64,000 nucleotides of DNA, from NCBI GenBank assembly GCA_021791675.1, contig JAJYWE010000004.1, positions 28,054 through 92,053 on the forward strand, written 5' to 3'. The position numbers and the translations under genes are program-made. Positions within the stretch are counted from its first letter, which is position 1, and each line of letters starts with the position of its first letter. Below the pieces are notes generated by a model. It searched no databases. It was not told the origin of the DNA and was given only the letters and a program-made list of their open reading frames with translations. This stretch comes from Actinomycetes bacterium (GTDB taxonomy: Bacteria; Actinomycetota; Acidimicrobiia; Acidimicrobiales; JAKAOS01). Shown in pieces: positions 56,313 to 63,877 of this stretch.

Positions 56313-58142
56313 TCAGTCGTAACTGGCCTCGACGGCCCACTGCCCTCGCTCCAGCACCAGCAGGTGCGCGCTCCCGTCCTCCAAGAGCACCTGGAGCCGG
56401 GCGACCCGACGACGCCCCGTTGCGTCCCACCACCGCTCGTCGACCGGCCAGGGACCCGCCCACCAGGTGATCGCTGCTGACTGGCCTGCCCCGAGCTTCC
56501 CGGTGTCAGACCGGCCTGCCCCGAGCTTCCCGGTGTCAGACCGGCCTGCCCCGAGCTTCCCGGTGTCGGACCGCTCCGGCTGGATCCCGCCCACCTCAGG
56601 CTGCCCCGCCCCCGCCCCCGCTCCCGGCGGGGGACCCCCCCGTCGGAGGGTCGCAGGCTGCCCGCAGAGCTGTCCCCGGCCATCCACACCCACCGCTACG
56701 CCCTGGCTCCCGAGGAGCTCGACCGGGAGTGGGGTCGGGTGGACGAGCGCCGGCGAGGGAGGAGGGAGCTCGCCCGGCCAGGGCCGATTGGGGGGTTGCG
56801 CCGGCTCGCGCGGCTCCCCCCAGGGCACCAGGCGAACCTGTTCGGCAGGCCCCCTCCCGCCCGAGCGCACGGCCGTGCAGACCGCCTCCGGTCCGAGCAT
56901 CCCCTGGACCCGAGCCAGTGCTCGCTCGGCACGGCGATCCGCCTCGGCGTCGCCTCCCCAGAGCCCGGGCTGGCGTCCTCCCGACCGCTCGAGCTCTTCT
57001 GCCGCGAGGCGGAGGAGGACGAGGCCCGCCGTCGGCGAGGCGGGGCCCGATCCTGTGAGCCAGCTCTCCAGCTGCCAGCGCACCCGCTCCACCAGTGGCT
57101 CCACCGAGAACGGACGATCGTGCCGCCAGCGCCGGACACATCGCTCGGCGTTGTCGGTCTCGACCTCGACCCGCACCCCCCGACAGGCGAGCCCGTGCTC
57201 GGACAGGCGACCGTACAGCTCGACGGCGAGCGAGCGCGCCACGAACGCCGCCCGGTCGACCTGGTCCACGGGAGGGTCCAGCTCGGTCCACACCTCCAGA
57301 TCCGGCGGGATCGCCGCTGGAGCCAGGCCAGCTCGATCCTCACCACGAGCGAGGCGCCGGGCAGTCTCCCCGTCAGGGCCGAACCGTTCCCGTACCGCAC
57401 GCTCGTCCAGTGCCGCCAGCTGGCCGAGCGTACGGATGCCGAGACGCTCGAGGACGTCGCAGAGCTCCGGGCGCTCGAGCGAGCGAACCGGGAGTGGGGC
57501 GAGGAAGCGAGCGGCTGCGCCCGGTGGGACGACCAGACTCCCCGGCCCGCCGTCCCCCGCCAGCTCGGCGTTCGCCACCGGCCCACCAACCCTCACCGAG
57601 CCGGCACCGCCCTTCACCGAGCCGGCACCGCCCTTCACCGAGCTACCAGCATCCCTCGCTGACTTGCCGTCCCCCGCCAGCGTGGCCGCCAGCCGAGCGG
57701 CGAACGGCCCTTCGGCCACGCCGATCCGCCACCAGGGTGGCTCCTCGATCCAACCCTGCCGTCGTCCGACGGCCCGGAGGATCTCACCGACCCGAACGAC
57801 CAGCGCATGGTCCCCGCCGAAGTACCGGGACGGGCCTCTCGTGGCGAAGGCGGCGAGGCCGGGGTGGCTCACCTCGACCTCGGGGCAGATCTCCCCGAGC
57901 GCAGCGACCACCCGCTCGAAGGCAGCCAGCTCCATGGTCAGGTTGCGGCGGAGCAGCTGCGCGCCCGGACTGCGGCGTTGGGCCTCGCGCCGGCGCTGGC
58001 CCTCCGTCACCCCGTCCGCTCGCGCCGCAGCCGAGGCCGCGACGACCCGGTTCCCCACCAGCACGATGGCCGGGACTGCGGGGGCGACGCCAGCAACGGT
58101 CACCGCCCAGTCGGGACACCAGACGGTGAGGGTCCGCACCAC
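56313..58142 (-). CDS. imuB: Y-family polymerase-like protein (ImuB-like)
   Basis: VRTLTVWCPDWAVT N-terminus and overall ImuB-like architecture. A Cheo-type LexA box lies 15 nt upstream. Confidence 0.75.
   Translation of the reverse strand: MVRTLTVWCPDWAVTVAGVAPAVPAIVLVGNRVVAASAAARADGVTEGQRRREAQRRSPGAQLLRRNLTMELAAFERVVAALGEICPEVEVSHPGLAAFATRGPSRYFGGDHALVVRVGEILRAVGRRQGWIEEPPWWRIGVAEGPFAARLAATLAGDGKSARDAGSSVKGGAGSVKGGAGSVRVGGPVANAELAGDGGPGSLVVPPGAAARFLAPLPVRSLERPELCDVLERLGIRTLGQLAALDERAVRERFGPDGETARRLARGEDRAGLAPAAIPPDLEVWTELDPPVDQVDRAAFVARSLAVELYGRLSEHGLACRGVRVEVETDNAERCVRRWRHDRPFSVEPLVERVRWQLESWLTGSGPASPTAGLVLLRLAAEELERSGGRQPGLWGGDAEADRRAERALARVQGMLGPEAVCTAVRSGGRGPAEQVRLVPWGEPREPAQPPNRPWPGELPPPSPALVHPTPLPVELLGSQGVAVGVDGRGQLCGQPATLRRGGPPPGAGAGAGQPEVGGIQPERSDTGKLGAGRSDTGKLGAGRSDTGKLGAGQSAAITWWAGPWPVDERWWDATGRRRVARLQVLLEDGSAHLLVLERGQWAVEASYD
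56483..56572 (-). repeat. 30-bp x3 in-frame tandem repeat inside the imuB-like gene
   Basis: GGCCTGCCCCGAGCTTCCCGGTGTCAGACC x3 (one mismatch); encodes the repeated SDTGKLGAGR. Confidence 0.85.
57594..57642 (-). repeat. 21-bp x2.3 in-frame tandem repeat inside the imuB-like gene
   Basis: CACCGAGCCGGCACCGCCCTT repeated; encodes SVKGGAG units. Confidence 0.8.
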
Positions 58143-58156
58143 AGCCCCATGCTATG

Positions 58157-58171
58157 CGAACACCTGTTCGA
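58157..58171 (-). promoter_or_regulatory. LexA (SOS/Cheo) box
   Basis: CGAACACCTGTTCGA fits the Gram-positive/actinobacterial consensus CGAAC-N4-GTTCG. It lies immediately upstream of the imuB-like start. Confidence 0.7.
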
Positions 58172-58233
58172 CTGCATTCGGCCAGACGCTCGTTTGGTTC
58201 CACCCGAAACGTCGGGCGAGCTGCACTCCAGGC

Positions 58234-58600
58234 TCAGATGGGTTGCGATCGAGAGGTCGCGAGCGCTGCCACGAACGCCCGCACCCAGTCGGGCTCAGTG
58301 CGCGCGTAGTCGCGGAGGGCCCAGCCCATGGCCTTGCGGATGAAGAAGCCCCCGCCGGAGCCGGCGGGTGCGTCCTGGCTGACGCCCTCGTCACGGCCCG
58401 AACCGAGGGGACCGGGACACCGAGGTACGGCATGTCCGACTTCATGTAGTCCTGCATCCTCGGCGCGCGGACCGGTTCCGCGGCGCGCTGCAGGCCTGCC
58501 CGGACGGCCTCGACCAACCGGGCGCTTTCCTCCGCGGAAGCTGCTGACGATGGAGATGACGACCGCCGCACCTGCCGACTCCTCACGACCCAGCAATCGA
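58234..58600 (-). pseudogene. remnant of a DNA alkylation repair (AlkD-like HEAT) gene
   Basis: N-terminal-like RAPRMQDYMKSDMPYLGVPVPSVRAV in one frame and C-terminal-like FFIRKAMGWALRDYARTEPDWVRAFV in another. The central region is missing. Confidence 0.45.
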
Positions 58601-58683
58601 CGCGACGACTACGAGCAGGTGCTCTCCGACCACTCCCTGCTGCACTCACCCTCGGAGGGCAGCCGTGGTGATCACCGGAGTGC

Positions 58684-58900
58684 TCATCTCGCTCGCAGGC
58701 CCAGGCCGATCCCGAAACCGAAGAGAACGGCAGCCGTGATGCCGTCGATCAGGCGTCGGGCCGAGCGGCGGTCGACCCAGTGACGAAGGGACCGGGCGCC
58801 GAAGATGACCCCGCTGAACCAGACGATGCTCTCGCCGTCGTGGACGAGTGCGAGGAGGAGCCCGACCGCAAGGTGCGGCGCGTGGACGGGGATGAACTGG
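58684..58900 (-). pseudogene. LysE-family translocator, 3' fragment
   Basis: FIPVHAPHLAVGLLLALVHDGESIVWF...IDGITAAVLFGFGIGLGL. It joins in frame to 63445 after removal of the transposon and one ACTGG copy. Confidence 0.8.
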
Positions 58901-59152
58901 TGTTGAGCGCCAGCCTGTTTGAAGATGGCGACGGCGCCCGGGGTGAGCACGGGGGTTGCGCACGACCGAACGACCGAAGTGGGTTGGGGCGAGAGGCGCA
59001 AGGCGCGTTGAAGGACCGGGTGGCGGTGCCGCCCGGTTCGGGGGTCGACTGGGGGGGTCGGTGACGGGCTGTGCGGCGTCGGCCTCGAGTCCGAGCGCCG
59101 CGCGTCGGTCCGTGAGGGACGGGCCTGCGGGCCGCCCTTCGCCCCGCCTCGT

Positions 59153-60481
59153 TCAGCTGGGGGCGAGAGGCGGTGCTGCGGTCCAGGTCCGCGCCGGGCG
59201 TCCACCGGTGGCGGTGTCGACGTGGAGGTGGGCTCGGCCGCCGGAGGCGAGCTCGGCGAGCGCGCGGTCGATGTCGGCGCCGGGGGCGTTGCGTCCGAGG
59301 GTGTCTCGGATCTGGGTCCGGGTGAGGCCTCGGGCTCCGGCGGCGGTGAGGGCGTCGGCGATGCGATCTGCGATGGGTCCGGCGTTCGCCCGCTCACCGG
59401 CCCAGGTGGCTGAGCGCGCTGCGTAGGCCCACAGGGCGAGCCCGGCGCGCAGGTGGGTCGTCGCGATCGTGCGGGCGCCGTCGGTGAGGGCGTAGAGCAG
59501 CGCCAGGCGCACGCTGTGGGCTTCGCCTCTGGCGACGAGTGCACCGCCAGGTCCGGGGGAGGCGGCCGAGAGGGTCGGGTAGATGTCCCACCATGTCTTT
59601 CGTGCGGCGGGGCTGAATCGCAGGCGTCCGGCACTTCTCGCGGTGGCGAGGTTGATCGCGAGCCGCTCGGGCAGGCCGGTGCCGGCAAGGGGGTTGGGGT
59701 GGCCGCCTTCGGGCAGGAGTCGAGCCCGTCGGCACGCGATGAGCAAGAACCGGTTCAACAGCCCGTTCGCGGTCTCGAGGCCGGCGACGTGGTGGGCGAG
59801 CTCGGCTGCGGTGATGTGGCCGATGACCGCGAGGTGGGCCGCTCGGGCCCGGGCGGGGGCGGTGCGGGTGAGCAGGGCGAGAGGTCGCCCGTCCCAGGCG
59901 GAGCGCAGCACCGGCGAGAGGGTGTTGACGTCTCTGGCGGTCATCTTGAGCACCGACGCGAACTCGGCCTCGACGACGAGCAGGCGGGGATCGGGAGCGC
60001 CGGGGTCTGTGCCGTCGGGATCGCGGAGTGCCCATACGAGCCCCTCGCCTGAGCTCAGCCCCGTCGAGGTCCGGGTGACAAAGCCGGGGTCGGCGCCGTC
60101 CATGAGCCGGGCGACGTGGTCCCACGAGGACCCTTTGCGCGCCTTCGCGGACTCGCCGACGAGCAGCAGGTACTCGTTCGGGTGATGCAGCGTCGCTTCG
60201 ACGGCGAAGTGGGCGCCGCGGCCGATCGTGGCACCGGCGGCGACGAGGGTCTGGGCCAAGATGGCGACGGGGTCGGCCTCGGTGTGAGGAGCGAGAGCGG
60301 CGACGATGTCGCCCATCAGACCGCTGTAGGCATCGGGCCCGGGAGCCTCGGGCCATCCCGGCGGTGGTGGCTCCACCGCCAGGGAGGCGGGGAGCTCGAC
60401 CCCCCGCGCTGGCTTCGGTGGTCGGGGATCGCCCTCGGGGGCGAACAGGCCGGCCTGGTCCTGCCTCGCAGCGCTCAGCAC
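59153..60481 (-). CDS. transposon third gene; resembles the DUF3987/YfjI family as I recall it
   Basis: Track ORF 59153..61357 trimmed to GTG at 60481. HHPNEYLLLVGESAKARKGSSWDHV and LLVVEAEFASVLK motifs. Confidence 0.5.
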   Translation of the reverse strand: MLSAARQDQAGLFAPEGDPRPPKPARGVELPASLAVEPPPPGWPEAPGPDAYSGLMGDIVAALAPHTEADPVAILAQTLVAAGATIGRGAHFAVEATLHHPNEYLLLVGESAKARKGSSWDHVARLMDGADPGFVTRTSTGLSSGEGLVWALRDPDGTDPGAPDPRLLVVEAEFASVLKMTARDVNTLSPVLRSAWDGRPLALLTRTAPARARAAHLAVIGHITAAELAHHVAGLETANGLLNRFLLIACRRARLLPEGGHPNPLAGTGLPERLAINLATARSAGRLRFSPAARKTWWDIYPTLSAASPGPGGALVARGEAHSVRLALLYALTDGARTIATTHLRAGLALWAYAARSATWAGERANAGPIADRIADALTAAGARGLTRTQIRDTLGRNAPGADIDRALAELASGGRAHLHVDTATGGRPARTWTAAPPLAPS

Positions 60482-61296
60482 TCGGTCACCTCCGCGACCG
60501 CCGCCCGCACGGCGGACTCGTCGACGATGGCCTTGTGCTCGGCCCACGCGGCGATGAGCGCCTGGACGGCCAGGTTGTTCACCATCCGGGGAAGTCCCCG
60601 GCTCACCTGGTGGGCCAACGCGATCGCGTCGTCGGAGAACAAGGTGTCGGCGCGCCCGGCGAGGGCCAGGTGATGGGCGACATAAGCCCCGGTTTCGCTC
60701 GCCTCGAGGCCCGACATGGCGTAGCGCAGCCCCACGCGCTGATCGAGCGCGGCGAAAGCCCCGAGTCGCAGACGCCGTCGCAGGGCCGGCTGACCCAACA
60801 GGATGAGCGCGAAGGGAGCGACCGAGTCCATGTGGGCGTTCGACAGGCAGCGCAGCCCTTCGAGGGTCTCCGCGTCGAGCAGGTGTGCCTCGTCGATCAC
60901 GACCGTGACCTTCTTCCCCCGCTCCTCGGACTCCGCGGCCAAGAGGTCCTGGGTCTGGGGGATCAGCGACGCGGAGTGGAACCTGGGGGTGGCGCCGAGA
61001 GCGGCGGTGATCGCCGCGTACATGCCCCGCAGGCCAACTCCGGGGGTGCCGAGGTAGATGGTGGTGTGGCGTGACCCGTCCAAGGCAGCGAGCGCGGCCC
61101 GCGCCGCGACGGTCTTGCCCGATCCGCACTCGCCGGTGACCACGCCGATGGCGGACTCCGCGACGCACCAACCGATGCGGGCCGTGGCCTCTGCGTGGCA
61201 GCGATAGCCGTGCAGCATGCCCGGCGCCAGGTCCTTGCCGAAGGGCATGCGGGTTCCGAAGCCATAGTGGGCTCGCAGCCCGTCGATCCCGCTCAC
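60475..61296 (-). CDS. TniB/ExeA-like AAA+ ATPase
   Basis: GTG at 61296 (GTGA overlap). Walker A VTGECGSGKTVAA, Walker B VTVVIDEAHLL. Confidence 0.8.
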   Translation of the reverse strand: MSGIDGLRAHYGFGTRMPFGKDLAPGMLHGYRCHAEATARIGWCVAESAIGVVTGECGSGKTVAARAALAALDGSRHTTIYLGTPGVGLRGMYAAITAALGATPRFHSASLIPQTQDLLAAESEERGKKVTVVIDEAHLLDAETLEGLRCLSNAHMDSVAPFALILLGQPALRRRLRLGAFAALDQRVGLRYAMSGLEASETGAYVAHHLALAGRADTLFSDDAIALAHQVSRGLPRMVNNLAVQALIAAWAEHKAIVDESAVRAAVAEVTEC

Positions 61297-62621
61297 GAGC
61301 TGACCTCCTCGGTGTCGTCGCCGCGGGTGAGGTCGGCGAAGTGGACGCGTCTGGCACCGGTCTCGGCCGCCCTGCGGGCAGCGACGAGGCTCAGGTAGTC
61401 GATCCCGGTCGGCACCGCCACCGGGGGAGCTTCTGCGCGGGCCTTCGGGTGGGTGTGGCGGGAGATGCGCACCGGGACCGCGGCGCCCATCGACCGGTTC
61501 TCGAAGCGGACCTCGATGCTGGTGAGGTCGAACGGGTTGAAGACGAGATCGACGCGCCGGCCGACGAGCGCGGCGTCGACCTCGAAGCAGTTCCCGTGCA
61601 GCGACACGGTCGCGGTCTTGGTCACCGTGCGCGTCTCTGCCCACAGGAACGCCTCGTGGAGCTGGTCGCGCGACGGCAGCGCCGGGGGGCCGCCGGCCTC
61701 GAAGCGTTCCAGGGGGCTCTGGCCGGTCTCCGAGTGCACCCGGCGGTGATAGACCACCTCCACCCAGGCGCTGAAGAGGCTGTTCAACTCGGCCAGGCTG
61801 GCAACACCACGGGCCTCGACCTCGACGACGAACTGCGACCGCACGGTCCGGAAGAACCTCTCGATCTTGCCCTTCGTGGTGGCCGCTCGGGGCCGGGCGT
61901 GGATCAAGCGAACGCCGAGCACCGCGCACGCCCGGAGGAACGGCGCGGACACGAACGCGCTGCCGTTGTCGACAAGCACCGCCTTCGGCACGCCCCGGGC
62001 GGCGAGGCCAGGACGCAACGCCGACTCCAGACGGACCGTGTCCTCCGCGACCGTCCACAGGTAACCGGCCAGCAACCTCGAGTGATCGTCGATGAACGCC
62101 AGCAGATAGGACTTGCGGCCGGCGACGACCGGGCCGTGCATGGCATCGCCGGTCCAGAGATCGTTGCGGGCGGCCGCCTCGAAGCGCCCGTAGACCTTGG
62201 CAGGGGCGCCATCGGGGCGGGTGTTCAACCCGAGTCGGGCGAAGTGGCGCTGGATCGTCCGCTTCGAGCAGCCCCCCCGGCCGGACTCGGCCAGGATCTG
62301 GGCCACCAGGACCGCACTGCGCGCCGGTGCCTCGGTCTTCAGCGCCACCGCCAGATCGAGCACCTCGCCCGGCACACGGCGCACGCCCCTTCGAGGGGCC
62401 GGGACCAACGCGTCGAAGCCGCCCCGCCGATAGGCCCGGACCCAGCGATCCAGCGTGGAGCGCCCCACCCGGACCGTCTCGCCGCCCGGCCTGGCGTGGT
62501 CCATGGCTGCGAGCTCGCGCACCAGCGCACCCCGCTCCGCGGCGGACAGCCCCGGGTCCGCGGCCTCACGTATCAGCGAGTAGCGGAACAACCCGACGTC
62601 TCTTCGATGGCCATCTTCCAC
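61293..62621 (-). CDS. Mu/TniA-type DDE transposase (rve core)
   Basis: HTH region STLDRWVRAYRRGGFDAL; DDE core LWTGDAMHGP...VLVDNGSAF...KGKIERFF. Likely GTG at 62621 after AGGAGGAG; the track start is 62651. Confidence 0.8.
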   Translation of the reverse strand: MEDGHRRDVGLFRYSLIREAADPGLSAAERGALVRELAAMDHARPGGETVRVGRSTLDRWVRAYRRGGFDALVPAPRRGVRRVPGEVLDLAVALKTEAPARSAVLVAQILAESGRGGCSKRTIQRHFARLGLNTRPDGAPAKVYGRFEAAARNDLWTGDAMHGPVVAGRKSYLLAFIDDHSRLLAGYLWTVAEDTVRLESALRPGLAARGVPKAVLVDNGSAFVSAPFLRACAVLGVRLIHARPRAATTKGKIERFFRTVRSQFVVEVEARGVASLAELNSLFSAWVEVVYHRRVHSETGQSPLERFEAGGPPALPSRDQLHEAFLWAETRTVTKTATVSLHGNCFEVDAALVGRRVDLVFNPFDLTSIEVRFENRSMGAAVPVRISRHTHPKARAEAPPVAVPTGIDYLSLVAARRAAETGARRVHFADLTRGDDTEEVSS

Positions 62622-62663
62622 AGCTCCTCCTGTCCGAACGGTGAGGAGCACAGCCTCTCCGGC

Positions 62664-63251
62664 TCAGCGGAGCGCCGGCAGAGGGCATCTCGTGTTGGCA
62701 AGCAGCACCCCGCCCGAAGCGAAGCTCGCCCAGCACCACGCCGGGCGCGGACCGTGCGCCAACACTGCGGCCCGAGCCGCCACCCCGATCGCCTCCACCG
62801 CGTCGACGAAGGCGCCCTGGCCCGGGCCGGCCGGAGCCAACGACACATCGAGAGCGAACGCCCAGCGCCAGAAGTGCTCCCGAATCGCGCTCGCCCGCTC
62901 GGAGAAGCGGCGCAGCCACCGCCGGACCCTCCACGCCGGCACCCCGAGACGGACAGCGATCGAGCGGTGCCCCGCCCCGGCCGCCTTGGCCTCGATCGCC
63001 TCGCCGATCACCGCCGCCTCGTCGCGACGGCGGAGGAAGCCCTCGTCTGGCAGCAGCACGTGGGTTCTCGCGCATCCCCGGCACCTCCCCCGGCGGGGCC
63101 GGAGCCTGTCCTCCTCTCCATCTCGCCGCCGGATCACCCGGACTCGGGCATGGCTCCACGGGCGGAGCACCCCGTCGCAGTCCGGGCAGGCCAGCAGCCC
63201 TCCGAGCAGGTCCGTCTCGACGGCCGCGTGATCGGTCCCTACGATGAGCAT
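62664..63251 (-). CDS. zinc-ribbon plus HTH protein (transposon first gene)
   Basis: ATG at 63251 after GGAGG. CPDCDG...CRGCARTH zinc ribbon; GHRSIAVRLGVPAWRVRRWLRRF HTH. Confidence 0.55.
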   Translation of the reverse strand: MLIVGTDHAAVETDLLGGLLACPDCDGVLRPWSHARVRVIRRRDGEEDRLRPRRGRCRGCARTHVLLPDEGFLRRRDEAAVIGEAIEAKAAGAGHRSIAVRLGVPAWRVRRWLRRFSERASAIREHFWRWAFALDVSLAPAGPGQGAFVDAVEAIGVAARAAVLAHGPRPAWCWASFASGGVLLANTRCPLPALR

Positions 63252-63444
63252 CGGTGCCTCCGGCATCGTCAGCAGGGACCCTCCCGACGTTCCGGCAAGA
63301 ATCAGCGGGAGGGTCCTTGCGCGTCCAAGAACACCCCCAGCCTCGCGCCCCAACTACTCGCCGTCCGCTCCCGCCACCAACGCCGTCCTCACCGTCAGCG
63401 GCGCAGCGACACCCGGCCATCCCCATTCCGGTTGGCGCTCAACA

Positions 63445-63877
63445 ACTGGGGCAGGACTGCAACATAGAACGCACCGATCTTGGGGTTGAGGAGATTCGTG
63501 AGCAACCCGCGGCGCCACGACCGCCAAAGGGTCGGAGCAGCCGGTTTGCACGCGACGGTCCGAGCGGTACCGAGAGCGCTGCCACCCCGGGCAGCCGCGA
63601 CCGCCAGTTTGAGACCGAGCCAGATCATGTAGCCCGCCCCGGCAAGCCGGAGGGCCGTGTAGGCGCTCGCGGAGGCGATCAGGAGACTCGACACGCCGAC
63701 GGCCGCACCCGCTCCCCAGACCAGGAGGCCGGCGTCGACACCCAAGGCGGTGGCGAAGGCGTACTTCTTCCCGTGAACGACCGCCGCCCGCAGGACCTGT
63801 GCAGTGTCCAGACCGGGGACAATCGTCAGGAGCCCCGCTACCAGAGCGAAGGACAGCACGGCCGTTGTCAGCGACAT
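63445..63877 (-). pseudogene. LysE-family translocator, 5' fragment
   Basis: MSLTTAVLSFALVAGLLTIVPGLD...LLNPKIGAFYVAVLPQ, then the transposon end. Confidence 0.8.

Follow-up and report, generated by a model that had tools for sequence, protein, structure and literature searches.

The 64,000-nucleotide stretch of DNA analysed here (the window) carries what is almost certainly a real autonomous transposon of four genes, built on a DDE transposase and an AAA+ ATPase, whose fourth gene, g4, encodes a stand-alone helicase module of the DUF3987/YfjI type. We propose, tentatively, that this helicase helps to replicate or repair the strand-transfer intermediate of transposition, and give the whole explanation, identification and helicase role together, a probability of about 40%.

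An insertion within a LysE-family gene

The element occupies positions 58901-63444 (4,544 bp), has TG..CA ends and is flanked by a 5-bp duplication, ACTGG (Table 1). Its ends, TGTTGAGCGCCAGCC and, as the reverse complement, TGTTGAGCGCCAACC, are identical at 14 of 15 positions, with a weaker likeness reaching to about 30 nt, and the terminal 15-mer occurs only twice in the whole window, both times at the element ends. The first 11 nt of the g1-proximal repeat, TGTTGAGCGCC, are conserved family-wide, the family ends being TGTTGAGCGCC...GGCGCTCAACA. The initial annotation had described these termini, repeats and duplication, and had placed them within a split LysE gene; both descriptions were borne out. 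Joining 58684-58900 to 63450-63877 gave a 214-aa reading frame, in which AFYVAVLPQ runs directly into FIPVHAPHL, and this frame matched the Pfam LysE domain (PF01810) in one stretch, from residue 18 to 210 and HMM position 4 to 190 of 193 (E 1.1e-28). The N-terminal fragment alone matched the same domain at E 7.4e-19, and the C-terminal fragment alone gave no Pfam match. The two halves are therefore one gene, a LysE-family exporter gene knocked out by insertion of the element. In the non-coding g4-proximal end, an Rfam search gave no match; relatives carry tandem 8-mers at the position equivalent to that of the window copy, but these differ in sequence.

Table 1. Positions in the window of the element's features and of the gene that it interrupts
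Feature	Position	Strand	Description
Interrupted LysE, 3' fragment	58684-58900	minus	Other ACTGG copy at 58896-58900
Terminal inverted repeat, g4-proximal end	58901-58915		TGTTGAGCGCCAGCC
Non-coding g4-proximal end	58901-59152		Terminal inverted repeat and tandem 8-mer ACGACCGA x2 (58962-58977)
g4	59153-60481	minus	442 aa; stand-alone DUF3987/YfjI-type helicase module (MCM-like AAA+, superfamily 6), C-terminal winged helix
g3	60475-61296	minus	273 aa; AAA+ ATPase, ExeA/AAA_22 type
g2	61293-62621	minus	442 aa; DDE transposase: HTH_28/HTH_32, rve core, Mu-transpos_C barrel (Pfam)
g1	62664-63251	minus	195 aa; CxxC...CxxC zinc ribbon (DUF6431), HTH, C-terminal helical domain
Hairpin, 15-nt arms	63272-63320	minus	Directly upstream of g1 ribosome-binding site; arms 93% complementary
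Terminal inverted repeat, g1-proximal end	63430-63444		TGTTGAGCGCCAACC read inward on minus strand
Interrupted LysE, 5' fragment	63445-63877	minus	ATG at 63877; ACTGG copy at 63445-63449

The transposition genes and their closest relatives

All four genes lie on the minus strand, and Pfam and NCBIfam searches agreed with the gene content first annotated: a zinc-ribbon/HTH protein, an rve transposase, an ExeA-like AAA+ ATPase and a further protein of 442 aa. The same searches gave no match to TnsA, TniQ, resolvase or IstB for any of the four. The g1 product matched DUF6431 (PF20020) at E 1e-8 and HTH_23 at E 0.003, and its residues C22, C25, C57, C60 and H64 were invariant among 28 homologues. 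A Foldseek search with its AF2 model (pLDDT 79) returned neither TniQ nor TnsD among the matches, and no significant PDB match at all. The gene was found in every complete family member and in the three-gene sister elements described below. The conserved hairpin that precedes it occurs in the sisters too; RNAalifold, applied to 21 elements (two of the sisters included), predicted 10 base pairs, of which 7 show compensatory changes. The hairpin is probably a regulatory element or a barrier to read-through.

The transposase gene, g2, overlaps the start of g3 by 4 nt at its stop codon, and an upstream GTG at 62651 is likewise open, giving a reading of 452 aa. Its candidate DDE residues, D169, D228 and E264 in the numbering of that longer reading (minus 10 for the 442-aa reading), were invariant. 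The protein scored under the cutoff of all NCBIfam IS models, the best being IS481 with 179 bits against a cutoff of 224, and a profile search of the PDB gave IstA of IS5376 at E 2e-7 and TnsB at E 3e-7 to 2e-6; judged from these profiles, it appears about equally near to IS21 IstA and to TnsB. In the ATPase, g3, the Walker A (GECGSGKT) and Walker B (VVIDEAH) motifs are intact, and matches were obtained to AAA_22 (E 2e-19), to TIGR03015 (pepcterm_ATPase; E 3e-39, under cutoff) and to phrog_296, a 'DNA transposition protein' (E 3e-23); a homologue in Conexibacter is named 'ExeA family protein' by NCBI. Against the PDB, the g3 family profile matched only MuB (8xvb, E 7.7e-5), the sole solved relative, with no match to TnsC.

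Several known systems share parts of this organization. The 'TnsBC elements' of Actinomycetota, of the Mu MuA-MuB type, resemble the window element in pairing a DDE transposase with an AAA+ regulator encoded after it, without TnsA or TniQ, and in having TGT/ACA ends, the 5-bp duplication seen in the window copy and lineage-specific accessory genes after the ATPase gene; Mu-like replicative transposition has been proposed for them (Hsieh et al., bioRxiv 10.1101/2024.11.13.623437). Compared by description only, the window element differs in lacking a serine recombinase, telomere gene, sbcCD and Cascade, in its family duplications of 5-8 bp, and in two genes that were not met in the passages of that preprint examined, one for a DUF3987 helicase and, upstream, one for a DUF6431 zinc-ribbon/HTH protein. 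IS21 (IstA/IstB) is similarly a two-component DDE and AAA+ insertion sequence with TG..CA ends, but g2 scores 70 bits where the NCBIfam IS21 cutoff is 160, g3 is of the AAA_22/ExeA kind and does not match IstB_IS21, g1 and g4 are extra, and abutted-end junctions were not found. Tn7 and Tn5053 (Tn402) have in common with the element a Mu-transpos_C DDE transposase, an AAA+ protein and one more gene following that of the ATPase, together with the 5-bp duplication of the window copy. In contrast, the window element lacks TnsA, TniQ/TnsD, TnsE and TniR, its similarity to TnsB reaches only E ~1e-6 by profile, TnsC is not matched, and the family has neither attachment-site or res-site specificity nor a fixed duplication length.

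Family copies, insertion sites and three-gene sisters

The window copy is intact and recently active; a second copy in another contig (L001) differs at 3 of 4,544 nt and has exactly the same end bases. The search found many other copies with these termini. Hundreds of relatives in Solirubrobacterales, Conexibacter and Acidimicrobiales genomes share the gene order and the TGTTGAGCGCC ends, and dozens of them, in complete or long-read genomes, have identical termini, each with its own target duplication; at least six copies occur in OY969707.1 and four in Conexibacter sp. S30A1. Many homologues lie on contigs of ~4.5 kb, as expected because the element is a repeat. The four-gene order is kept in essentially all related loci with sufficient sequence. 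This is a large Actinomycetota family, met mainly in Solirubrobacterales/Conexibacter and Acidimicrobiales, in soil metagenomes, and assigned to no named IS family; we found no published description of the element.

Target duplications within the family, which reflect staggered cuts, measure 5, 6, 7 or 8 bp, and in one Conexibacter genome copies with identical element ends have duplications of 5, 6, 7 and 7 bp, so that the 5-bp duplication does not serve, as had been supposed, to mark the element as one of the Mu/Tn7/Tn5053 group. IS21 makes variable duplications of 4-8 bp and transposes via abutted-end junctions. The variable duplications of the present family, together with the TG..CA ends, the DDE and AAA+ pair and IstA as the best solved relative of the transposase, recall IS21, and would suit an IS/mini-replicon hybrid that excises or copies out as a circular or tandem-end intermediate (IS21/IS3-style), with g4 replicating that intermediate or serving the copy-out step, episomal replicons being the usual clients of DUF3987 helicases. 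We consider this very improbable, because primase, initiator gene and IstB-type ATPase are all absent, abutted ends are absent from loci L001-L095, and when 241 million metagenome records were scanned for GCGCTCAACA-N0-12-TGTTGAGCGC, the 73 stretches obtained included none that encoded g1, g3 or g4 and only one with a weak g2-like match (25% identity); the scan is not exhaustive, as exact matches were required.

Sister elements of ~3.35 kb, with g1-g3 in the same order, were found on plasmids of the Streptomyces group, Rhodococcus and Mycobacterium, for example in Rhodococcus jostii RHA1 pRHL3 (RHA1_RS43355-43345), Kitasatospora indigofera (NZ_CP108209.1) and Mycobacterium intracellulare (NZ_CP012886.2). 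Their proteins are 43-47% (g1), 55-59% (g2) and 57-63% (g3) identical to those of the window element, and bear only generic NCBI names (DDE-type integrase, ExeA family or AAA family ATPase). In contrast to the window element of ~4.5 kb, they have no fourth gene, and tblastn with g4 against the sister loci found nothing. Termini and duplication could be defined for one sister (L094, TGTTG...CAACA, 6 bp; in pRHL3 the ends read TGTTGAGCG...CAACA, with a duplication of 6 bp). It has evidently transposed without g4, and therefore the basic reaction does not need a helicase. The conserved core of the family is g1, g2 and g3, to which the window lineage adds g4. Neighbour-joining trees placed the three sisters together in a single clan next to the four-gene lineages, so that a single gain or a single loss suffices.

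The helicase gene and its possible role

The window g4 has no Pfam match of its own, falling under the DUF3987 threshold, which 2 of 29 family members reach. Its close homologues, however, match PF13148 (DUF3987) and carry 'YfjI family' names at NCBI, in line with the resemblance that the initial annotation had suggested. Outside transposons, g4 is closest to the C-terminal halves of Prim-Pol or Toprim primase-helicases (45-50% identity, E ~1e-95), which share with it the invariant motifs VGxSxKxRKGSS, LLVxExEF, N243-R244 and R252. In plasmids, phages and integrative elements, modules of this type are as a rule fused to a primase or paired with one. Foldseek, with a model of moderate quality (pLDDT 71.6, residues 141-216 around the Walker-B region being poorly predicted), gave phage DUF3987, helicase and primase proteins at E 1e-13 to 1e-7 (TM ~0.5) and MCM at E 1e-3 to 1e-2. 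DUF3987 has been characterized as a 5'->3', fork-unwinding, ATP-dependent helicase, the partner of a primase-polymerase (PMC11724360), and predicted to be a replication helicase of mobile elements (PMC5862659).

A Pfam search of g1 and g4 for TniQ gave no match, and g4 was rightly described at the outset as not TniQ-like; the suggestion that the accessory proteins form a different target-selection module found no support. On this reading g4, alone or with g1, would replace TniQ/TnsD/TnsE, and the MuB-like ATPase would be guided not by sequence but by DNA structure, for example the forks or gaps that arise when DNA replicates or is conjugated. The gene does sit after the AAA+ gene, which is the place of TniQ in Tn5053 and Tn7-like operons, its product is predicted to combine a C-terminal winged helix with a DNA-binding AAA+ ring, and the lack of a sequence consensus that we observed is what targeting by structure would produce. 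However, comparison of 16 insertion sites for a target preference revealed no site specificity or flank consensus, copies in two complete chromosomes had no obvious orientation pattern (in a small sample), and the sisters without g4, with one definable site (L094), give no hint of a different insertion pattern. TniQ-like sequence or fold is absent from both g1 and g4, the latter being a homologue of replicative-type helicases, and nothing ties DUF3987 proteins to target choice; we regard such a role as quite improbable. Because family duplications vary, the sites lack a consensus and the sisters lack the helicase, g4 is an accessory gene, for which a role as target selector is not demonstrated.

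This gene is translationally coupled to that of the ATPase, the two overlapping by 7 nt in the window and by 4-7 nt across the window, L001, L008, L012 and L079. Its pN/pS of ~0.31, similar to the 0.20-0.31 of the transposase, indicates that it is under purifying selection, and its NTPase motifs are retained. It might nevertheless be a fixed passenger outside the transposition machinery, which would need g1-g3 only; a primase-less helicase could interfere with or replace the replication proteins that rival plasmids, phages or integrative elements use, or the host could gain from it by another route. The three-gene sisters, with the same ends and a 6-bp duplication in L094 at least, would fit this explanation, as would their single clan, which needs only one gain or loss, and 45-50% identity to the helicase domains of primase-helicases from other mobile elements makes mixed or poisoned hexamers imaginable. 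We nonetheless think a passenger unlikely: g4 overlaps the g3 stop and keeps its position throughout a clade in which the element's own proteins are down to 55-65% identity, its selection resembles that on the transposase, its NTPase motifs are invariant although a mere decoy could do without them, and passengers of IS-like elements tend to vary, whereas nothing else varies here.

For the role that we prefer, in the strand-transfer intermediate, the transposase, aided by the ATPase on target DNA, would join the 3' ends of the element to the target, as in Mu. The product would be a forked intermediate, left in that form because a TnsA-like second nuclease and a resolvase are absent. Onto these forks the element's own 5'->3' helicase would load; replication or repair synthesis, driven or recruited by it, would then pass through the element, and completion of transposition would thereby depend less on the host restart primosome. 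As no primase is encoded, the host would still have to provide for lagging-strand synthesis. We found no cointegrate or junction evidence for replicative transposition. With DUF3987/YfjI helicases such as AgaPH (PMC11724360) and the helicase domains of AEP and DnaG-type primase-helicases of mobile elements (PMC5862659), g4 shares a homologous AAA+ module, the same Walker-type motifs and the C-terminal winged helix; unlike them, it is a protein on its own, having neither a primase domain nor a primase gene next to it, and is co-transcribed within a DDE transposition operon rather than belonging to a replicon, a phage or an integrase-borne island.

The element and the gene it splits

The element is 4,544 bp long, starting with TGTTGAGCGCCAGCC and ending with the reverse complement of TGTTGAGCGCCAACC; its terminal inverted repeats are identical at 14 of 15 positions, with a patchy likeness continuing to about 30 nt, and the terminal 15-mer has no further occurrence within the 64-kb window. 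It is flanked by two copies of ACTGG, and when 58684-58900 is joined to 63450-63877 an ORF of 214 aa is obtained, residues 18-210 of which match positions 4-190 of the 193 in the LysE model (PF01810) in one stretch across the junction (E 1.1e-28). The upstream fragment alone matches LysE in Pfam with an E value of 7.4e-19 and the downstream fragment alone gives no Pfam match, and the continuity of the match over the restored junction indicates that the two halves are one gene, split by the insertion. The GC content of the element (72.5%) equals that of the window. Only four ORFs are conserved across the family, all on the minus strand; their products are referred to here as g1 to g4.

The first three are a DUF6431 zinc-ribbon protein (g1), a DDE transposase (g2) and an AAA+ ATPase (g3). 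In g1, a CxxC...CxxC arrangement and a histidine are invariant among homologues; Foldseek comparison of its structure model (pLDDT 79) with the PDB gave a best E value of 0.05 and no match to TniQ or TnsD. The possibility that g1 is a cryptic TniQ was ruled out, there being neither a TniQ match in Pfam or NCBIfam nor a TniQ fold in the Foldseek results. The g2 frame is also open from an upstream GTG at 62651, giving a 452-aa reading, in the numbering of which the candidate catalytic residues D169, D228 and E264 are invariant. The protein reaches the cutoff of no NCBIfam IS model; IS481 scores highest (178.7 bits against a cutoff of 224), and transpos_IS21 gives 70 bits against 160. Compared with solved structures, its profile lies at a similar distance from IS21 IstA, the best match (E 2e-7), and from TnsB (3e-7 to 2e-6). 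g3 most resembles ExeA/pepcterm ATPases and the PHROG 'DNA transposition protein', and its family profile has MuB as its sole match in the PDB (E 7.7e-5), with no TnsC chain. Because g2 and g3 overlap by 4 nt, and g3 and g4 by 7 nt, translation of g2, g3 and g4 is probably coupled. Searches of the four proteins with Pfam and NCBIfam gave no TnsA, TniQ, TniB (PF05621), IstB (PF01695) or resolvase domain.

Features of the element and its surroundings (window coordinates)
Feature	Position	Strand	Description
ImuB-like gene	56313-58142	-	609 aa; PF00817 IMS family; neighbour of the split LysE region
ORF between ImuB-like gene and LysE	58152-58649	-	DNA_alkylation repair enzyme model, first 45 of 213 positions only
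Target duplication, two copies	58896-58900; 63445-63449		ACTGG
Element	58901-63444		
Tandem 8-mers	58962-58977		ACGACCGA x2; 60-77 nt inside the g4-proximal end
g4	59153-60481	-	442 aa; DUF3987/YfjI-type by homology, no Pfam match of its own
g3	60475-61296	-	273 aa; AAA_22 ATPase, Walker A and B intact
g2	61293-62621	-	442 aa; HTH_28/HTH_32, rve core, Mu-transpos_C barrel
g1	62664-63251	-	195 aa; DUF6431 zinc ribbon, helix-turn-helix, helical C-terminal domain
Hairpin	63272-63320	minus-strand transcript	Directly upstream of the g1 ribosome-binding site

Family, target duplications and related systems

A near-identical copy (L001), differing at 3 of 4,544 positions and having identical ends and other flanking DNA, lies on a separate metagenome contig, and a 65%-identical subfamily was found on 19 contigs with several distinct flanks, some of these contigs stopping exactly at ...CAACA, as is expected where an assembler breaks at a repeat. 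Among species-representative genomes, 200 loci encode a relative of g4, almost all from bins of Actinomycetota (Solirubrobacterales/Conexibacter, Acidimicrobiales and others); a metagenome protein set contains more than 3,500 homologues of g4 and more than 7,400 of g2. By these counts the family is very abundant. Genomes of Solirubrobacterales and Conexibacter have it in multiple copies: the complete chromosome OY969707.1 has at least six and Conexibacter sp. S30A1 has four. Its members are 4.51-4.66 kb long, with conserved ends (TGTTGAGCGCC...GGCGCTCAACA). The element is an autonomous insertion sequence with a DDE and AAA+ core, recently active and present in multiple copies. The initial annotation had described a LysE gene interrupted by a TG...CA element with 14/15 inverted repeats and a 5-bp duplication, and had taken it for a genuine four-gene DDE/AAA+ transposon; the restored frame, the domain matches, the ends and the many relatives with matching termini all agree with that description. 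The NCBI pipeline gives the Conexibacter copies no IS family, labelling their genes generically as 'DDE-type integrase', 'ExeA family' and 'YfjI family', and our literature search found no description of a DDE/AAA+ element with DUF3987 and DUF6431 genes.

Two further proposals of the initial annotation, membership of the Mu/Tn7/Tn5053 group with its fixed 5-bp duplication and a target-selection role for the accessory genes, were not supported. Exact duplications flank 16 family copies, including that in the window, and are of four lengths: 5 bp (ten copies), 6 bp (three), 7 bp (two) and 8 bp (one), with two further copies showing an apparent 8-bp duplication containing a homopolymer error. In the Conexibacter genome alone, four copies with identical ends have duplications of 5, 6, 7 and 7 bp. 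Since the matches of 6-8 bp between suffix and prefix lie in another register than a 5-bp match, they are not chance extensions of it, and the stagger is truly variable. Variable duplication length is also a feature of IS21 and IS481. No motif is common to the 16 insertion sites; the target is cut with a stagger of 5-8 bp and is not sequence-specific. No orientation pattern was evident among the copies in two complete chromosomes, where they are too few for such a test. With 16 sites lacking a consensus, and no TniQ match in Pfam or NCBIfam for g1 or g4, the data lend no support to a target-selection module; in a less likely rival account, g4 would select targets by their structure.

Most copies that lack a duplication come from short-read contigs or adjoin other elements; L001 and several short-read contigs have no matching duplication, and CCCGG is common to the right flank of L009 and the left flank of L010, both of the 65%-identical subfamily. 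We attribute the absences to chimeric assembly, in which flanks are joined arbitrarily over a 4.5-kb repeat, and do not regard them as evidence against transposition.

Comparison with known systems sets the element apart from each in some respect. Tn7-like transposons have a TnsA gene next to tnsB and a TniQ or TnsD target selector, whereas the element has no TnsA-type domain and no such selector in g1 or g4. Tn5053/Tn402 elements have the genes tniA-tniB-tniQ-tniR and a res site, and insert near res; here TniQ, TniB and resolvase are absent and the sites are diverse. IS21 consists of IstA and IstB, whereas g2, although near IstA by profile, is under the IS21 cutoff, and g3 has no IstB match; IS481 has a single transposase gene, in contrast with four genes and a g2 below the IS481 cutoff. 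The closest described class, likened by description rather than by sequence, is that of the TnsBC elements, presented in a preprint as Mu-like transposons whose TnsB-like transposase is paired with an AAA+ regulator, which lack TnsA and TniQ and have TGT/ACA ends (bioRxiv 10.1101/2024.11.13.623437). In the element, too, an AAA+ gene comes after a transposase gene with a Mu-type C-terminal domain, the ends are TGT..ACA, and TnsA and TniQ are lacking. Accessory genes differ between TnsBC sub-branches (serine recombinase, sbcCD, terminal protein, type I-E Cascade), and the passages of the preprint consulted here name neither a DUF3987 helicase nor a DUF6431 protein. We describe the element as of Mu/TnsBC/IS21 type with a built-in helicase, an architecture that is unusual, abundant and amenable to experiment.

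Gene 4 and a possible role after strand transfer

The initial annotation had likened g4 to DUF3987/YfjI, and the likeness is real, although the window protein itself does not match PF13148 even at E <= 1. Two of 29 aligned family members do match (best E 3.2e-17), several close homologues have precomputed PF13148 (DUF3987) matches, and the NCBI names of homologues are 'YfjI family' (including the Conexibacter orthologue) or 'DUF3987 domain-containing'. An exhaustive HMMER search gave 11,025 relatives at 50% clustering, with the protein's own transposon cluster at 62% identity and the nearest relatives beyond it at 45-50% (E about 1e-95). Most of the latter are proteins of 600-900 aa whose C-terminal half corresponds to g4, the N-termini of these long relatives carrying either Prim-Pol and PriCT_1 or DnaG-type zinc-ribbon/Toprim primase domains. 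In phmmer, g4 finds the PF13148-passing proteins P0123, P0130, P0131, P0137 and P0143 with E values of about 1e-95. The motifs VGxSxKxRKG[ST]S and LLVxExEF, together with N243-R244 and R252, are invariant in the g4 family and the primase-helicases, and a C-terminal winged helix is common to both; g4 thereby keeps its NTPase motifs of Walker A/B type intact. With an AlphaFold model of g4 (pLDDT 71.6, pTM 0.71), Foldseek found phage DUF3987, helicase and primase-polymerase proteins in the BFVD viral library (E 1e-13 to 1e-7, TM about 0.5), the matches to the phage DUF3987 proteins specifically reaching 5e-13 at a TM of 0.5; matches to MCM helicases in the PDB were weak (E 1e-3 to 1e-2), g4 had no match among PDB sequences, and a few family members gave faint matches to Mg_chelatase_C, AAA_lid and MCM_lid. 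DUF3987, for which a role as the replication helicase of mobile elements had been predicted earlier (PMC5862659), has been found by experiment in the AgaPH primase-helicase system to be an ATP-dependent 5'->3' helicase that unwinds forks and binds a partner primase-polymerase (PMC11724360). The homology of g4 to the C-terminal halves of primase-helicases, taken with these helicase data, identifies it by sequence as a primase-less copy of the DUF3987 helicase module, with a predicted 5'->3' activity.

Relatives of the element exist without this gene. A tblastn search of plasmid records with g2 gave 54 records with one match covering at least 80% of it, and the matches listed, at 54-60% identity, are from Streptomyces, Kitasatospora, Rhodococcus, Mycobacterium and Pseudonocardia; the next plasmid relatives, at 31% identity or less, are annotated as 'Mu transposase C-terminal domain-containing', ISNCY/IS1202, IS481 or IS3. 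At the three loci examined, in Kitasatospora indigofera (L093), Rhodococcus jostii RHA1 pRHL3 (L094) and Mycobacterium intracellulare, g1 (43-47% identity), g2 (55-59%), g3 (57-63%) and the hairpin before g1 are present, and neither g4 nor space for it was found. In pRHL3 the ends are TGTTGAGCG...CAACA and the target duplication is GCCGGT, 6 bp long. The plasmid records contain a single 28%-identity match to g4, in Nonomuraea, so that annotated plasmids lack the four-gene form. Unrooted neighbour-joining trees, built for g2 and for g3, group the three sisters together as one clan next to the lineages with four genes, and one gain or one loss of g4 therefore suffices. From the sisters it follows that the transposition core is g1-g3 and that g4 is a lineage-specific addition. 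The three-gene form may already have a name in ISfinder.

Such an addition might be fixed cargo, interfering for example with other replicons. Within the four-gene lineages, the order g1-g2-g3-g4 holds wherever the upstream sequence suffices, and the genes diverge in step, with identities of 44-78% for g1, 50-82% for g2, 53-88% for g3 and 57-82% for g4. The pN/pS values, which cover only part of the gene and pair combinations, are 0.29-0.45 for g1, 0.20-0.31 for g2, 0.22 for g3 and 0.31-0.32 for g4; all four genes are under purifying selection. Were the helicase mere cargo, the finding would shrink to a variant of an IS family.

We favour a role for g4 after strand transfer, in replication or repair, because a forked intermediate is expected and 5'->3' fork unwinding is the activity predicted for g4. 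As the element has one DDE nuclease and lacks both a second-strand nuclease and a resolvase, transposition would give a strand-transfer intermediate of Mu type, forked at both ends, and a 5'->3' fork-unwinding helicase would be the activity that turns such a fork into a replication or repair fork. For phage Mu this conversion is supplied by the host restart primosome, and the hand-off of a Mu-type strand-transfer fork to the replisome is understood mainly for Mu in E. coli, via host factors. The full proposal is a tentative one, to which we give a probability of about 0.3: that this is the first known DDE transposon family with its own replicative-type helicase, a DUF3987 ring that loads itself on the forked ends and starts replication of the element without a host PriA-type restart, the helicase having been captured from a primase-helicase replicon by a lineage now very abundant in soil Actinomycetota. 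If this role is correct, the four genes would offer a compact system for studying the hand-off from fork to replisome, with the helicase-less sisters as a natural built-in control, and would document an exchange of modules between replicons and transposons. Recognition of the family should also improve annotation and the reading of assemblies in soil Actinomycetota, whose contigs frequently stop at the ends of the element.

Alternatively, g4 might replicate an excised circular or tandem-junction intermediate. Against this, when 241 million metagenome records were scanned for abutted ends, by exact matches only, no junction with element genes turned up: there were 73 palindromic matches, none with g1, g3 or g4 and one with a weak, 25%-identity g2-like match, and loci L001-L095 contain no abutted ends. 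The palindrome itself, GCGCTCAACA-N(0-12)-TGTTGAGCGC, occurs on 73 contigs (L096-L168) without relation to the element; the version GATCATCGCTTTGCGCTCAACAGGCCGGCCTTGTTGAGCGCGCCGGACAAAAA recurs in about 20 contigs, and L146 has a close variant beside the weak (25%) g2-like match.

Non-coding features and neighbouring sequence

The hairpin before g1 is found in four-gene and three-gene elements alike, and 7 of its 10 predicted pairs show compensatory changes; it is also present at L008, L012, L013, L017, L021, L024, L025, L032, L033, L035, L038-L040, L063, L064, L079, L084, L088, L093 and L094. It may act as a barrier to outside read-through or as a regulator of g1. In many members a short palindrome (e.g. 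CGCGCGTTCGTAAACGCGCG) lies ahead of it. At the other end, the tandem 8-mers mark the most A+T-rich spot of the element and are equally placed in L012, L013, L017, L025, L033, L035, L040 and L088 with different sequences (ACGTTGAA x2-3, ACGAAAGA x2); they could be a protein-binding or unwinding site. They are unrelated to the termini. As a candidate internal repeat for transposase binding, the element shows a single weak copy of the terminal sequence (72%), which lies 89 bp in from the g4-proximal end. Neither the element nor five relatives matched Rfam, and scans for sigma-70 promoters and intrinsic terminators gave nothing, a result that is uninformative at 72% GC.

In L002-L011, of the 65%-identical subfamily, g4 is followed by a non-coding tail of ~455 nt (e.g. 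L009 4411-4868) with long G+C-rich hairpins and no Rfam match; the tail has more copy-to-copy differences per base than g4, a comparison biased by the retrieval of these loci through exact identity of the g4 protein. The Kitasatospora sister L093 (NZ_CP108209.1, record 6.5-9.9 kb) lies less than 10 kb from the end of a linear plasmid, and at its ATPase-proximal end the 24-nt terminal repeat is present as a tandem pair; a target duplication is not evident. This arrangement may be related to the telomere-associated TnsBC elements of Streptomyces. Some copies are in bins labelled as archaeal or proteobacterial, namely L012/L020, on the 703-kb contig_49020 assigned to Thermoplasmata ('uncultured Thermoplasmata archaeon'), and L046, L047 and L089, which are on contigs of 2.5-4.8 kb and are probably mis-binned repeats.

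Beside the split LysE gene, the remainder of the DNA_alkylation ORF seemingly continues in another frame (ORF 58234-58596), so that the gene may be a pseudogene with a frameshift, unless a sequencing error accounts for the break. The adjacent ImuB-like gene contains two in-frame tandem repeats, one of 30 bp x3.2 at 56479-56573 and one of 21 bp x2.4 at 57593-57643.
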